Translations under genes and position numbers: made by a program
Notes under the pieces: generated by a model
Databases searched by the model: none
The model's input: only the letters and a program-made list of their open reading frames with translations
Told to the model about the DNA's origin: nothing
IMG/VR virus record: IMGVR_UViG_2695420658_000002
DNA length: 17,661 nucleotides
Reading direction: 5' to 3' (one strand)
Source of the DNA: a virus
Lineage: Duplodnaviria > Heunggongvirae > Uroviricota > Caudoviricetes
In this document: piece by piece, positions 950-17,461 of the stretch
Layout: each line of letters begins with the position of its first letter
Numbering within the stretch: the first letter of the stretch is position 1

Positions 950-1621
950 TCAGCGACCAATCACCACAACCTGACCACCGTCCCCTTCGTCTGCCGTGCT
1001 GATCTCCTGAGATACCACACGTGACCCCACGCGCATTTCACCATACAGAACAGGCATAACATTGCCCTGGGCAACCATGTTATCCAGTGAGGAGAAATAG
1101 GTGTTCTGCTTACCGTTATCCGTTGTCTGTGTGCGGGGAGTTCTGGCTTTCGGTGCCAGCATCTGAGCCACACCGCCGAGCACCATACTGGCACCGAGAG
1201 AAAACAGAATGCCGGTCATACCACCGGCACCAATGGCAGCCCCCCATGCTGCAAGGGTGGCTCCGGCGGTAAAGAATGATCCGGCAATGGCGGCTGCTCC
1301 CAGGACAATCTGGAATACACCACCTGACTTGGCCCCGGCGACTCTGGGAACAATATGAATCACAGCGCCGTCAGGCAGAGCCTCATGTAACTGTGCCGTT
1401 AATCCGGACGTGCTAACATCCTGCCCGGCAATACGCACCTGATACCAGCCGTCGCTCAGCTTCTGACGAAACGCAGGGAGCTGTGTGGCCATCGCCCGGA
1501 TGGCTTCGGCACCCGTTTTCACACGAAGGTCGATGCGGCGGCCAAATCGTTGCAAATCCCCGTAAAGGCAGATGCGTGCCATGCCCGGTGACGCCAGAGG
1601 GAGTGTGTGCGTCGCTGCCAT
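950..1621 (-). CDS. I: Tail assembly protein I (ubiquitin-like N-terminal domain, Gly/Ala-rich hydrophobic middle)
   Basis: 223-aa ORF recognised as lambda gpI (MAATHTLPLASPGMARICLYGDLQRF...); 672 nt, same length as the lambda gene; ATG at 1621; overlaps K by 103 nt. Confidence 0.9.
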   Translation of the reverse strand: MAATHTLPLASPGMARICLYGDLQRFGRRIDLRVKTGAEAIRAMATQLPAFRQKLSDGWYQVRIAGQDVSTSGLTAQLHEALPDGAVIHIVPRVAGAKSGGVFQIVLGAAAIAGSFFTAGATLAAWGAAIGAGGMTGILFSLGASMVLGGVAQMLAPKARTPRTQTTDNGKQNTYFSSLDNMVAQGNVMPVLYGEMRVGSRVVSQEISTADEGDGGQVVVIGR

Positions 1622-2262
1622 TTGTCGGTATACCTCTCTCGTTTGCTCAGTTGTTCAGGAATATGGTGCAGCAGCCCGCCGTCACCGCAGTAAATGGCGG
1701 CATGATTCGGCACCGATGAACCAAAACAGCACAGCAGCACATCGCCCGGCTGCGCCGCTGACAACGGCACCTGATACAGCCCTGTGGCCTCCAGATTATC
1801 CAGATAGAGATTCTGACCGTGACGCCACCAGTCATCCTCACGATGAAAATCCGGCATCTCAATCCCCGCCAGATGGTAAGCATCCCGGAACAGCGTGTAA
1901 CAGTCCGTCACCCCGTGCTCAAAGCGCCGCCCGGTGAGATGCGGCACACAGCGGAACTTGTGAATCGCCCCCCGGCAGACCAGCCACCACGGCAAATCAC
2001 TCTGCACCTGCAGCCGCCGGTCGGCCTCACTCAGCCAGGGCAGACCACCGGGGTGGCTGTGGACCAGTGCCACAATCTCACCCTGCATCTCTGCCTGCAG
2101 CCAGTCTTCCGGCGACATACGGAAATACGCCTCCGGCTCACCGGAGATATTCACGCAGGGGAAATATCTTTCCCCCTCCGGCGTTCTTACCACGAAGCCG
2201 CACGACTCCGCTGGAGCACATCGCCGGGCGTGCGCCAGAATCGCTGATTCTGTCTCTGTCAT
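1519..2262 (-). CDS. K: Tail assembly protein K (JAB/MPN + NlpC/P60 domains); long form from the ATG 5 nt after the L stop; the reference-style start would be the internal ATG at 2118
   Basis: 247-aa ORF; HSHPGGLPWLSEAD JAMM motif, E-x2-G (PAESCGFVV) upstream, NlpC/P60-like Cys (TDCYTLF) and His (PNHAAIY). The C-terminal 199 aa correspond to lambda K as I recall its annotation. Confidence 0.8.
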   Translation of the reverse strand: MTETESAILAHARRCAPAESCGFVVRTPEGERYFPCVNISGEPEAYFRMSPEDWLQAEMQGEIVALVHSHPGGLPWLSEADRRLQVQSDLPWWLVCRGAIHKFRCVPHLTGRRFEHGVTDCYTLFRDAYHLAGIEMPDFHREDDWWRHGQNLYLDNLEATGLYQVPLSAAQPGDVLLCCFGSSVPNHAAIYCGDGGLLHHIPEQLSKRERYTDKWQRRTHSLWRHRAWHASAFTGICNDLAAASTFV

Positions 2263-2267
2263 GGGAT

Positions 2268-2966
2268 TTACTGCGAAAGTTTGTTAATGGAAAGGAAGCC
2301 GCCAAAGTTGCCGACGTTATTGCGAAACTTACAGCCACTCAGGCATTTGCTGCATTTATCCTTCGTGATGTCGGACGTTGGCTGGTCATATTCATCCGCG
2401 ACCGCCGGACCGTGATAACCGCACTCATCGCCGCGATAGGTCCAGGTGCAGGTGTTGGCCAGCATGATACGTCCCGGAAAAACAGCGCCATCTGTTTCCG
2501 TCGGCGTGGACAGTACAAAAGAGGCACTCACCGCGCTCAGTTCGCTGCACTGCTCAATGCGCCAGCGGCTGATCACCTCCTGCTCCGGATCGGCGTCACT
2601 GTTTCCGTTGACGAAGTTCACCGCATCCAGAAAACGGGCGTAAACCTTACGCCGGACCACCGTTCCGCCGACCAGACTCTGTAGATCTTCCGCCATCCCG
2701 GTGACCATACCGTACAGGTTAGAAACCATCAGCGTGGGGCGCGTACTGGTGCCTTTGCCATTCAGTTCAAAACCACTCCCCTGAATGGGATACGGCTGAT
2801 ACTGTCGCCCCTGCCAGGTGACCGGCTCACCTTTTTCGTTCTGCTCATTACAGAAAAAATAACGTTCTCCACCGACCTCTGTCAGATCGATTTCCCAGAG
2901 CACCACGCTGGCCGACTGCTCCGCACGGGTGCATTCATTCAGTGTTTCCTGCCGGATATCCTGCAT
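2268..2966 (-). CDS. L: Tail tip protein L (C-terminal Cys cluster)
   Basis: 232-aa ORF recognised as lambda gpL (MQDIRQETLNECTRAEQSASVVLWEIDL...); 699 nt as in lambda; start ATG overlaps the M stop by 1 nt (TGATG). Confidence 0.9.
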   Translation of the reverse strand: MQDIRQETLNECTRAEQSASVVLWEIDLTEVGGERYFFCNEQNEKGEPVTWQGRQYQPYPIQGSGFELNGKGTSTRPTLMVSNLYGMVTGMAEDLQSLVGGTVVRRKVYARFLDAVNFVNGNSDADPEQEVISRWRIEQCSELSAVSASFVLSTPTETDGAVFPGRIMLANTCTWTYRGDECGYHGPAVADEYDQPTSDITKDKCSKCLSGCKFRNNVGNFGGFLSINKLSQ

Positions 2967-3295
2967 CAGTTCACCACCTGTTCAAACTCTGCGCTGAACT
3001 CAACACGCAGCATACTGACCCGCGACGACCATTTTGCGCAGGTCACCTTTATCTGCCGCCACTCATAAGGCGGCGTCCACAGAAAGGCTTTCCAGCCCCC
3101 GTGCTCTTCCAGAAACGACTCCAGTACCATGGCCTCCTCACGGGGGACAGAAAGCGTCACGCTGTACGTTTTCAGGTTGGCATTCAGCCCGGCAGGCGCT
3201 CGCTGGGAATAGCCATCACCAAAGCGCACCTTTCTTACAGAAGGGGCCGAAGCCACATCCATACCGGGTTTCACTTTCCAGCGGAAGGTTTTCAT
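2966..3295 (-). CDS. M: Tail tip protein M
   Basis: 109-aa ORF recognised as lambda gpM (MKTFRWKVKPGMDVASAPSVRKVRFGDGYSQRAPAGLNANLKTYSV...); 330 nt as in lambda; 4-nt overlap with the H stop. Confidence 0.9.
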   Translation of the reverse strand: MKTFRWKVKPGMDVASAPSVRKVRFGDGYSQRAPAGLNANLKTYSVTLSVPREEAMVLESFLEEHGGWKAFLWTPPYEWRQIKVTCAKWSSRVSMLRVEFSAEFEQVVN

Positions 3296-5911
3296 CGTCC
3301 ACCTCCGGAGAACAGGCCACCATCACGCATCTGTGTCTGAATTTCATCACGGGCACCCTTGCGGGCCATGTCATACACGGCCTTCATCATCTGTGGACCT
3401 GGCAGACCATTCGTACCGTCGTTCTGAATCACCACGTGATTGTTCTGATTAAAATTAATGCCTTCAGCCCGCCGCATCTGCGCCGGACTTCCGGCACCGC
3501 CCACATAACCACCTTCCGCATAGCCGCGCATCAGCCGGTAGAGATTCCCCACGCCAATCCGGCTGGTTGCCTCCTTCGTGAAGACAAATTCACCACGGTG
3601 AACAATCCCCGCTGGCTCATATTTGCCGCCGGTTCCCGTAAATCCCCCGGTTGCAAAATGGAATTTCACCGCAGCGGCCTGAATGGCTGTACCACCTGAC
3701 GCGGATGCGCCGCCACCAACAGCCCCGCCAATGGCGCTGCCGATACTCCCGACAATCCCCACCATTGCCTGCTTAAGCAGAATTTCTGTCATCATGGACA
3801 GCACGGAGCGGGTGAAGCTGCGCCAGTTCTGTTCACTGCCGGTCAGCATCGCCGCCATATTCTGTGCAATACCATCAAAGGTCTGCGTGGCTGCACTTTT
3901 AACCTGTGACATACTGTCCGTGGCGCTCTCTTCCCACTCACTCCAGCCGGACTTCAGGCCTGCCATCCAGCTCCCGCGAAGCTGGTCTTCAGCCGCCCAG
4001 GTCTTTTTCTGCTCTGACATGACGTTATTCAGCGCCAGAGGATTATCGCCATACTGTTCCTTCAGGCGCTGTTCCGTGGCTTCCCGCGCTGCCTGCCGGT
4101 CAGTCAGCCCCCGGTTTTTCGCATCAATGGCTGCCCGTTTTGCCCGTTGCTGCTGTGCGAATTTATCCGCCTGCTGCGCCAGCGCATTCAGGTGCTCCNN
4201 NNNNNNNNNNNNNNNNNNNNNNNNNNNNNNNNNNNNNNNNNNNNNNNNNNNNNNNNNNNNNNNNNNNNNNNNNNNNNNNNNNNNNNNNNNNNNNNNNNNN
4301 NNNNNNNNNNNNNNNNNNNNNNNNNNNNNNNNNNNNNNNNNNNNNNNNNNNNNNNNNNNNNNNNNNNNNNNNNNNNNNNNNNNNNNNNNNNNNNNNNNNN
4401 NNNNNNNNNNNNNNNNNNNNNNNNNNNNNNNNNNNNNNNNNNNNNNNNNNNNNNNNNNNNNNNNNNNNNNNNNNNNNNNNNNNNNNNNNNNNNNNNNNNN
4501 NNNNNNNNNNNNNNNNNNNNNNNNNNNNNNNCTTCACGCCGGACTGTTTCGGCTTTTTCAGCGTCGCTTCATAATCCTTTTTCGCCGCCGCCATCAGCGT
4601 GTTGTAATCTGCCTGCAGGATTTTTCCGTCTTTCAGTGCCTTGTTCAGTTCTTCCTGACGGGCGGTATATTTCTCCAGCGGCGTCTGCAGCCGTTCGTAA
4701 GCCTTCTGCGCCTCTTCGGTATATTTCAGCCGTGACGCTTCGGTATCGCTCTGCTGCTGCGCATTTTTGTCCTGTTGACGCTGTTGATCTACCCTCTTTT
4801 GGGCTGCATCCCGCTCCAGGCGTTTTTTTTCACGATCATCCCAGTAACGCGCCCGTGCTTCATCGTTAACGAAATAATCATCCTTGCGCAGATTCCAGAT
4901 GTCGTCTGCTTTCTTAAACGCAGCCTCTGCCTTAATCAGCATCTCCTGCGCGGTATCAGGACGACCAATATCCAGCACCGCATCCCACATGGATTTGAAT
5001 GCACGTGCAGTCCTGTCTGCCCAGGTCTCCAGCGTGCCCATGTTCTCTTTCAGGCGGCGGGTCTGGTCATCAAACCCTTTCGTTGCGGCCTCGTTCGCCG
5101 CCTGCAATGCCCCGGCTTCATCGCCGGAACGCTGCAACTGAGCAACATACGCAATCTGCTCCGCCGTCACGTTATGGAACTGGCGTGCCATCGCCGTCAG
5201 CCCCGACGTCGGGTCTGTGGTCAGCTTCCCGAAGGCTTCAGCGACCTTGTCCACCTCCACGCCGGATGCATAGGAGAAACGCGCCACACTCTGGCTGATG
5301 GACGCAATCTGAGCCTCACCGCTTACCCCCGCCTTAACCAGTGCGCTGAGTGACTCGCTGGTCTGGTTAAACGTCAGCCCTGCCGCCTGCCCGGCTCTGG
5401 ACAGGACCAGCATACGATCTGCCGTCAGTCCCGCCTGATTACCGGAAAGGACCAGCGTTTTGTTGAAATCGGACAGGGTTGAGTTGCCCTGATACCAGGC
5501 ATACGCCAGCGCACCGGTCGCCACCGCCAGCGAGGTGGCCCCCACCATCGGCAGGGTGATCGCGCCGGCAAGCCCCCTGAACATGGGGATCATCCCGCCG
5601 AAGGAGTCCTTAACCTGACCACCCTGTTGCAGCAGGATCAGCCAGGGATTCTGCCCCCCTGCAAGCTGCGTGGCCACGTCGGTGAACTGTGCAGGCAGCA
5701 TACGCATGGCGGCTTTATACTGCCCGACGGAAATCCCCGCTTTCTGTGCAGCCAGCGCCTGTCGGCTCAGCGACTGTTCAACGACTGCCGCTGTTTTTTT
5801 CGCATCACTTTCCGTACCGGAAAAATGACGCCTGACTCTGGCCATCTGCTCGTCAAATCTGGCCGCATCCAGACTCAAATCAACGACCAGATCGCCTACC
5901 GGTTCAGCCAT
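3292..5911 (-). CDS. H: Tail tape measure protein H, interrupted by a 333-nt N run; reading frame differs across the run
   Basis: N-terminal 460 codons (5911-4532) begin MAEPVGDLVVDLSLDAARFDEQMARV...; the C-terminal segment (4197-3292) reads EHLNALAQQADKFAQQQRA...MSEQKKTWAAEDQL...GGLFSGGGR. Both are recognisable as lambda gpH. H start overlaps the T stop by 8 nt, as in lambda. Confidence 0.8.
4199..4531. other. Masked/unknown sequence (333 N) inside gene H
   Basis: Run of n characters in the sequence. Confidence 1.
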
Positions 5912-6338
5912 ACCGGACTCCTCCTGCGATCCCTTCTGATACTGTCATCAGCATTACGTCATCCTCCGTCATGTCCGCCACATCCGGGGAAGCGGGGATA
6001 ACTTCATTCCCGTCCGGGCCAAAGCGGACACCTCCGGCAAGCCCTGCCGCTTTCTGCATCAGCACATCATCTTCAGGCTCTTCGTCAGCCTCGCGCCGGT
6101 TCAGCAGACTGAAATCCAGCGGATGCATCTCCGGATCGCTGAAAAACAGGCTGAGCACGGTGTACGTCAGCCCGGAAAAGTGCATATCCAGCAGAACATC
6201 ATGAAAATAATGGGTACTGTAAAAGCGGTGCCAGTCGGCATACTCCGTGGATGACATCCCGGCAAGCATGGCGCGCCAGTCGGGTCGCCCCATCTCACGC
6301 GCCAGTTTCAGGGCAAAACTCAGCTCACCGTCGAACAC
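5904..6338 (-). CDS. T: T-frame portion of the tail assembly chaperone G-T fusion, expressed by -1 programmed ribosomal frameshift from G
   Basis: 144-codon open frame in the -1 frame relative to G, overlapping the G 3' end; 435 nt as for lambda T; the slippery heptamer sits at its 5' end. Confidence 0.85.
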   Translation of the reverse strand: MFDGELSFALKLAREMGRPDWRAMLAGMSSTEYADWHRFYSTHYFHDVLLDMHFSGLTYTVLSLFFSDPEMHPLDFSLLNRREADEEPEDDVLMQKAAGLAGGVRFGPDGNEVIPASPDVADMTEDDVMLMTVSEGIAGGVRYG

Positions 6339-7505: not shown

Positions 7506-7901
7506 TCACATTTCATAGATAATGACATAAGTCAGATCGGCTGAACTCCACAGGCCCGCATCATCGTCGCGCCGGTAGTCATAGCCGCTGGCCACCATAC
7601 TGGTGATCAAATCTGACAGTGCCGGGATATCGCTCATCACAGGATAAATCCGGGACTCCATCCACGAATCCAGCTCTGAATCCGGCACCTGAGCAGGCAG
7701 GAAAACTTCAATATGCAGCTCCGCCTGCCAGGTATCGCTGTCCAGCTCTTCGCCCGTGTATTCAGCGCCGGTGAGATAAACGGCAATTGCCGGAAAATCT
7801 TCCTCATCAAAAACAGCGGGGCGACCATCAAAAAGCGTCGCCCCGGTGTCATGCTTCTCCAGTGCATCCAGTACGGCTGCACGGAGTTCAGTATGTTTCA
7901 T
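7506..7901 (-). CDS. U: Tail terminator protein U
   Basis: 131-aa ORF recognised as lambda gpU ([43 protein letters not shown]...); ATGA overlap with the Z stop. Confidence 0.9.
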
Positions 7902-8476
7902 CGCTTTATTACCATTCTCAGTTGATGCTGCAGCGCATAGCCCAGCTCTTTCGGAAGACGTTCACGCCGTATCCGTTCAATATTCTGTTTAAACGCCGTG
8001 GTCAGCGGCACCGCCATCGGGATTTTCACCACATCAATGGGGTAACGGTTTTTCCCGGCCACACGCTGCATAACATGCCACCGGCCGTTTTTCAGTTGCT
8101 GAATAAACGCGCCGGGAATACGACGGTTACCCACCACAAGCACGCTGCCGCCACCTTTCAGGGATGAACGCTGCCCCTTTTTATGACGCCTGCGGCGGGA
8201 CAGGACAACCCGCGCATTACCCAGCTTGATTACGGGCAAATCCCCCCGGTTAACTTTGATTCTGGCCTGCGGATTTTTGACCGTGGCCCTTTTCAGCCTG
8301 GCCCTTTCCTTTACCAGTTTCCGGCGTACCTTTGTCTCACGGGCAACCTGTGACGCAGACTGCGATATCGCGGATGAAGCAACGCGGTTAATGGCCATTG
8401 CGGCGGCACCGGGCACCGCCGTTTTGCTGATACGGCTGAGGTTTTCAACGGCCTGCTCAAGACCTTTTATGGCCAT
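7898..8476 (-). CDS. Z: Tail completion protein Z
   Basis: 192-aa ORF recognised as lambda gpZ (MAIKGLEQAVENLSRISKTAVPGAAAMAINRVASSAISQ...); 579 nt as in lambda. Confidence 0.9.
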   Translation of the reverse strand: MAIKGLEQAVENLSRISKTAVPGAAAMAINRVASSAISQSASQVARETKVRRKLVKERARLKRATVKNPQARIKVNRGDLPVIKLGNARVVLSRRRRHKKGQRSSLKGGGSVLVVGNRRIPGAFIQQLKNGRWHVMQRVAGKNRYPIDVVKIPMAVPLTTAFKQNIERIRRERLPKELGYALQHQLRMVIKR

Positions 8477-16408: not shown

Positions 16409-16977
16409 NNNNNNNNNNNNNNNNNNNNNNNNNNNNNNNNNNNNNNNNNNNNNNNNNNNNNNNNNNNNNNNNNNNNNNNNNNNNNNNNNNNNNNNNNNNN
16501 NNNNNNNNNNNNNNNNNNNNNNNNNNNNNNNNNNNNNNNNNNNNNNNNNNNNNNNNNNNNNNNNNNNNNNNNNNNNNNNNNNNNNNNNNNNNNNNNNNNN
16601 NNNNNNNNNNNNNNNNNNNNNNNNNNNNNNNNNNNNNNNNNNNNNNNNNNNNNNNNNNNNNNNNNNNNNNNNNNNNNNNNNNNNNNNNNNNNNNNNNNNN
16701 NNNNNNNNNNNNNNNNNNNNNNNNNNNNNNNNNNNNNNNNNNNNNNNNNNNNNNNNNNNNNNNNNNNNNNNNNNNNNNNNNNNNNNNNNNNNNNNNNNNN
16801 NNNNNNNNNNNNNNNNNNNNNNNNNNNNNNNNNNNNNNNNNNNNNNNNNNNNNNNNNNNNNNNNNNNNNNNNNNNNNNNNNNNNNNNNNNNNNNNNNNNN
16901 NNNNNNNNNNNNNNNNNNNNNNNNNNNNNNNNNNNNNNNNNNNNNNNNNNNNNNNNNNNNNNNNNNNNNNNNNNNNN
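16409..16977. other. Masked/unknown sequence (569 N); expected location of cosN and the cos-proximal region beyond it
   Basis: Run of n characters; by lambda spacing (Nu1 start about 190 nt from the cohesive end) cosN would lie near 16440-16465. Confidence 0.9.
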
Positions 16978-17020: not shown

Positions 17021-17461
17021 ATGGCTCAGGTTGCCATTTTTAAACAAATATTCGATAAAGTGCGAAATAATTTAAACTATCACTGGTTTTNNNNNNNNNN
17101 NNNNNNNNNNNNNNNNNNNNNNNNNNNNNNNNNNNNNNNNNNNNNNNNNNNNNNNATTTACTATTTAGCCACAGAGAATATTCATCTTGTTCTTGAAAAC
17201 GATAATACGGTTTTAATAAAAGGACAGGGTAAGGTTGTAAATGTAAGATTTTCAAAAAATAAATGCCTTATAGAAGCCACCTTAAAAGGATTCAAATCAG
17301 GAGAGTTATCATTTTACGAATACAGGAAAAATCTTGCTACAGCAGGGGTTTTCAGATGGATTACAAATATCCACGAAAACAAAAGGTATTACTATACCTT
17401 TGATAATTCATTACTCTTTACTGAGAACATACAGAACACTACACAAATATTTCCGCACTAA
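17021..17461 (+). CDS. Hypothetical protein, AT-rich moron-like cargo ORF beyond cos; possibly a DUF1398-type (YbcV/YdfO-like) prophage protein
   Basis: ATG at 17021 with GGAAGG 7 nt upstream (the track's ATG at 17006 has no Shine-Dalgarno); frame open to TAA at 17459-17461; markedly lower G+C than the structural genes; interrupted by a 65-nt N run. The family assignment is from memory of similar prophage proteins and is weak. Confidence 0.55.
17091..17155. other. Masked/unknown sequence (65 N) inside the AT-rich ORF
   Basis: Run of n characters. Confidence 1.

Follow-up and report, generated by a model that had tools for sequence, protein, structure and literature searches.

A run of 333 N in the tape-measure gene of a lambda-type prophage contig is an assembly artefact

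Does a run of 333 N in the tape-measure gene H of a lambda-type phage contig record DNA of that length? The contig (IMG/VR record IMGVR_UViG_2695420658_000002) was analysed as one stretch of 17,661 nt, called here the window. A reading of it made earlier from the sequence alone had pointed to the run, at 4199-4531, as incompatible in frame with the flanking parts of H, and had left two alternatives: either the run is a placeholder of arbitrary length, or H carries an insertion of about 58 nt, or a frameshift, that would alter tail length or inactivate the gene. We are highly confident, from comparison with near-identical prophages, that the run is a scaffold gap in a short-read draft whose N count is not a true length, that the real DNA would be a 275-nt stretch, and that the frame conflict is artefactual.

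The minus strand of the window encodes a lambda-type module for head and tail morphogenesis, with the genes in the order Nu1, A, W, B, C, D, E, FI, FII, Z, U, V, G, T, H, M, L, K, I and then the start of J. The placement of H between the G/T chaperone genes and M-L-K-I-J follows from the ORF map, the annotation of relatives and the Pfam matches of the neighbours. Features that bear on the gaps are collected in Table 1. At the G/T overlap the minus strand has the heptamer GGGAAAG (6344-6338), like the programmed -1 frameshift site that lambda uses for gpGT; judged by its sequence and position, this is ordinary for the family.

Table 1. Gene H, its neighbours and the three N runs of the window
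Feature	Coordinates	Strand	Remarks
Gene M, minor tail protein	2966..3295	-	Adjoins H downstream and overlaps the H stop, as in lambda
H, C-terminal part	3292..4198	-	Third base of codon 552 (4198), codons 553-853, stop (3294-3292); Tape_meas_lam_C
N run 1	4199..4531		333 N; almost certainly stands for 275 nt of H (codons 461-552 less one base)
H, N-terminal part	4532..5911	-	Codons 1-460, open; Pfam TMP_2
Gene T, tail assembly chaperone part	5904..6338	-	Adjoins H upstream and overlaps the H start, as in lambda
N run 2	16409..16977		569 N; 490 nt in near-identical prophages, holding the cos site and a small YlcI/YnfO (DUF3950) gene, upstream of Nu1
N run 3	17091..17155		65 N; 35 nt inside a DUF1398 gene

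The gene itself is an ordinary member of the lambda gpH-type tape-measure family. TMP_2 (PF06791, E = 4.8e-70) was found at 4532-5911 and Tape_meas_lam_C (PF09718, E = 3.1e-22) at 3295-4197, both on the minus strand. Codons 1-460 align without gaps to residues 1-460 of lambda H (446 identical, about 97%), and the codons after the N run align, again without gaps, to residues 553-853 (about 92% identical). All 761 visible codons are free of stops and of indels relative to lambda. The likeness to lambda gpH (853 aa; J02459 10542-13103) therefore covers the T-H-M position, both domains and the gapless flanks; the differences are that 92 codons are unseen in the window's record, and ordinary allelic substitutions elsewhere.

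We recomputed the reading-frame arithmetic from the ORF map of the window, which starts H at 5911 and ends it with the stop codon at 3294-3292. From 5911 to 4532 there are 1380 nt, or 460 codons with no stops, and the segment before the gap therefore closes exactly on a codon boundary at 4532. From 4197 to 3292 there are 906 nt, making 301 codons plus the stop, so that base 4198 must be the third base of the preceding codon. The hidden part of H is thus codons 461-552 minus this one visible base, which comes to 275 nt, a number of the form 3n+2. The N run is 3n, and literal read-through therefore meets a stop 11 codons past the gap. As deposited, H spans 2620 nt in the window, 58 more than the 2562 nt of lambda H. 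The sequence-only reading agrees with this recomputation throughout: in the coordinates of the run, in the codon positions at both of its edges, in the need for a gap of 3n+2, in the estimate of about 275 nt for an H of lambda length (the gapless lambda alignment gives 275), and in a lambda H length of 2562 nt, which J02459 bears out.

The same run is present in the public record. GCA_001260575.1 (L060, contig CXCK01000071.1) matches the window at 100% identity, 333 N included, so the run belongs to the deposited draft scaffold. H is called there only as a 242-aa C-terminal fragment. An N run that is already in the NCBI record, together with three N runs that disagree with true lengths (see below), led us to reject a deliberate length-preserving mask.

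Eleven near-identical prophages have sequence where the window has the run. The closest are L061, with no mismatch to the window in a flank of 7789 nt and 2 in the other flank of 3604 nt, and L072 (0 mismatches over 2176 nt and 1 over 11,877 nt); the flanks of L063 and L071 are as close. The remaining seven (L055, L056, L058, L059, L065, L066 and L068) are 99.5-99.99% identical to the window. In 11 of 11 the flanks are separated by 275 nt, and this filler comes in a single version, identical in all of them at flank identities of 99.5-100%; in L061 it occupies 7790-8064. Alignments of all relatives stop at 4198 and resume at 4532, collinear up to the very edges of the N run. An 853-aa H with both TMP_2 and Tape_meas_lam_C is called in most of the eleven.

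When the 275 nt from these prophages are spliced into the window, the frame that the N run interrupts becomes a single one of 2562 nt and 853 codons, the length of lambda H, with zero internal stops and 816 of 853 residues identical to lambda. Since 275 nt restore an H of this length, the frame conflict would be a bookkeeping artefact, and the hidden DNA is almost certainly the 275-nt stretch common to the near-identical prophages. The argument is by proxy, from the near-identical prophages. A continuous H frame of lambda length was what the sequence-only reading had named as speaking against its suspicion; it is found in the near-identical genomes and does not come from the strain's own reads.

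Two of the eleven prophages, L066 (GCA_008727295.1) and L068 (GCA_052712815.1), have H and several other genes called in pieces, with the 275-nt segment intact. The fragmented calls are due to small indels that lie outside this segment; relative to the window there is 1 gap in L066, and there are 11 plus 3 gaps in L068. These indels are probably either consensus errors in the two assemblies or real decay. As to where close relatives are to be found, complete RefSeq E. coli genomes, 5,426 in number, give a best whole-window match of only 97.7% identity, and GenBank records reached by protein look-up and lying outside that E. coli collection, for example CP104423.1 and CP044191.1, are 99.6-99.99% identical to the window.

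Flank spacing was also evaluated more widely. It was 275 in 46 of 46 further related loci that hold both flanks. The flank pattern with an N{260,290} spacer matched 39 viral contigs, every one of them at 275, and with an N{310,340} spacer it matched nothing among the viral, metagenome and genome contigs of three public collections. An exact 39-mer of the left flank hit 32 viral contigs, four metagenome contigs and no GTDB genome contig, and none of the contigs so matched has an N run. Of the best 30 H matches in complete E. coli genomes, all but one have a span of 2562 nt, the exception being 2563 nt long; among the best 60 local matches there, the spacer is 275 nt in 53 and 213 nt in seven.

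The window offers its own measure of how far N counts can be trusted, as it has two further runs (N runs 2 and 3 in Table 1). The true lengths at these, 490 and 35 nt, are seen in L063, L066, L071 and L072, where flanks match at 100%, and the same two lengths are found in L002 and L014. In the 40 E. coli genomes listed (98.7-99.6% flank identity), N runs 2 and 3 together are 109-111 nt too long. Relative to the near-identical prophages, the three runs of the window exceed the true length by 58, 79 and 30 nt. A sister assembly of the same accession series, L057 (GCA_001258915.1, CXEY01000060.1), has an error of opposite sign within H: it has 8 N at 7535-7542 where the window has 93 nt (4779-4871), making the run 85 nt too short, and the gene caller split its H there into 366 aa and 414 aa. 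In H, what is a gap in the window is sequence in L057, and vice versa. The N runs seen in this assembly series are 1, 8, 16, 65, 120, 333 and 569 long; they do not follow a fixed 100-N convention and look like scaffolder or gap-filler residues. Because 569 N stand against 490 nt, 65 N against 35 nt and, in L057, 8 N against 93 nt, the N counts in the series are estimates or placeholders. The first of the two alternatives that had been left, a placeholder of arbitrary length, thus has strong support from the deposited N, from the 275 nt of the relatives and from the wrong counts at other gaps.

Two details of these further gaps may be recorded. The 30-nt excess of N run 3 is a multiple of three, so the wrong count does not break the frame of the DUF1398 gene. 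Under N run 2, the 12-base cohesive end in the relatives is GGGCGGAAGGCG, as against GGGCGGCGACCT in lambda, with five differences; the cos sequence around it is well conserved.

How such a gap could arise may be sketched. Two contigs ending inside H would have been joined on read-pair evidence, and the stretch left between them would then have been written as N, with a count that is either an estimate or the leftover of partial gap filling. The break itself may come from a stretch common to another lambdoid prophage of the same genome, or from thin read coverage, and the pipeline was presumably of the Velvet/SSPACE/GapFiller type. A literature search found no paper citing the accession or its series (CXCK01, CXBD01, CXEY01). 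In kind, nothing sets the case apart from an SSPACE and GapFiller-type scaffold gap: the N were deposited with the record, both flanks run collinear with near-identical genomes that are uninterrupted there, the counts are irregular (65, 333 and 569 against a real 35, 275 and 490), and the gene is cut short or broken up by gene callers where the gap lies, as with the short H of L060.

Short-read assemblers break contigs at stretches present more than once. E. coli genomes give the H query a median of 2 matches and up to 8 places per genome, with up to 6 for the gap region and up to 9 for the cos/ylcI region, the last partly via genes of cryptic prophages that are annotated as nohD and ynfO. Lambdoid tail genes thus commonly occur more than once in a genome, and in one case two H genes of a single genome have the same protein accession. 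Several copies of H-like sequence in one genome make repeat-induced contig breaks plausible. Among sister assemblies the gaps fall at differing positions, a pattern that speaks for a weakness of the assemblies in general rather than for anything special at 4199-4531. Closure of the gap in sister assemblies, yet not here, leaves room for a local difference.

The ends of the window have a similar setting. The window is the whole contig, its left end lying inside gene J (1-889) and its right end (17661) shortly past the DUF1398 gene. In lambdoid prophages, sequence is typically shared or switched in the J region and in the region past DUF1398, and contig ends at such places fit repeat-limited short-read assembly.

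Real indels do occur in this segment of H. We fetched one of the seven E. coli matches with a 213-nt spacer, L052 (NZ_CP024886.1, E. coli AR_0017, AM344_RS27745, H at locus 1343-3842), in which a 62-nt deletion within codons 461-552 has left an H that NCBI annotates as a frameshifted pseudogene. The annotation 'frameshifted' means that inactivating indels are real in the segment of codons 461-552. The case resembles that of the window in affecting the central segment of H by a number of bases not divisible by three; it differs in that a finished genome sequence shows the indel itself, whereas the window has only an unreliable N count.

The second alternative takes the N count as length-true, or nearly so, with about 58 extra bases or some other indel of non-3n length in codons 461-552, which would make H a pseudogene and the prophage tail-defective. 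We consider this very improbable. It could call on the natural 62-nt frameshifting deletion in the same segment of other E. coli prophages, on the failure of the region to assemble in the window's record, and on the 333-N run being one base out of frame with its flanks. Since all three N runs of the window are too long, it would require three independent insertions, and the 8 N that stand for 93 nt in L057 are at odds with length-true counts. Flanks 310-340 nt apart were found in no contig of the three public collections. A 58-nt duplication would want a source, and there is no direct repeat of at least 7 nt spaced 58 nt in or near the segment. That the 301 C-terminal codons are fully open counts only weakly against it, as decay would not yet be visible after a recent frameshift. 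The insertion reading is unsupported because it needs a length-true N count, and such counts are wrong elsewhere in the contig and in the sister assembly; the suggested change of tail length or inactivation of H falls with it. Similarly, there is only a slight chance that codons 461-552 of H in the strain of GCA_001260575.1 are altered by an indel or rearrangement, similar to the 62-nt deletion of other E. coli prophages, that blocked gap closure and would leave the prophage unable to build tails.

Less likely still is that a mobile element such as an insertion sequence landed in H and broke the assembly. Insertion sequences commonly cause contig breaks, and in the sister assembly L056 the same prophage has an IS1 InsA gene nearby. 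An insertion would leave all of the H sequence on the contig ends next to the element, however. In the window each flank breaks off precisely at the point expected from collinearity with intact genes; nor does a read-pair estimate of about 333 nt suit 275 nt plus an element of at least 700 nt. We rejected it on the ground that 275 nt of H itself are absent, rather than an element merely being added.

Equally remote is a chimeric join, in which H halves from two lambdoid prophages of one genome were wrongly linked via a shared stretch: lambdoid prophages are often multi-copy within a genome and greedy scaffolders are capable of false joins (PMC5320598), but the same pair of flanks is contiguous without N in L061, L072, L063 and L071 at 99.9-100% on both sides, and the join was rejected on this contiguity in independent assemblies.

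The 333-N run is therefore an assembly artefact rather than a biological feature, and no evidence points to a change in the H of the window. Neither frames nor lengths should be calculated from N runs in draft scaffolds like this one. Where such gaps fall in H, gene callers cut it short or break it up, and the resulting fragments can be mistaken for pseudogenisation or for a tail-length variant.
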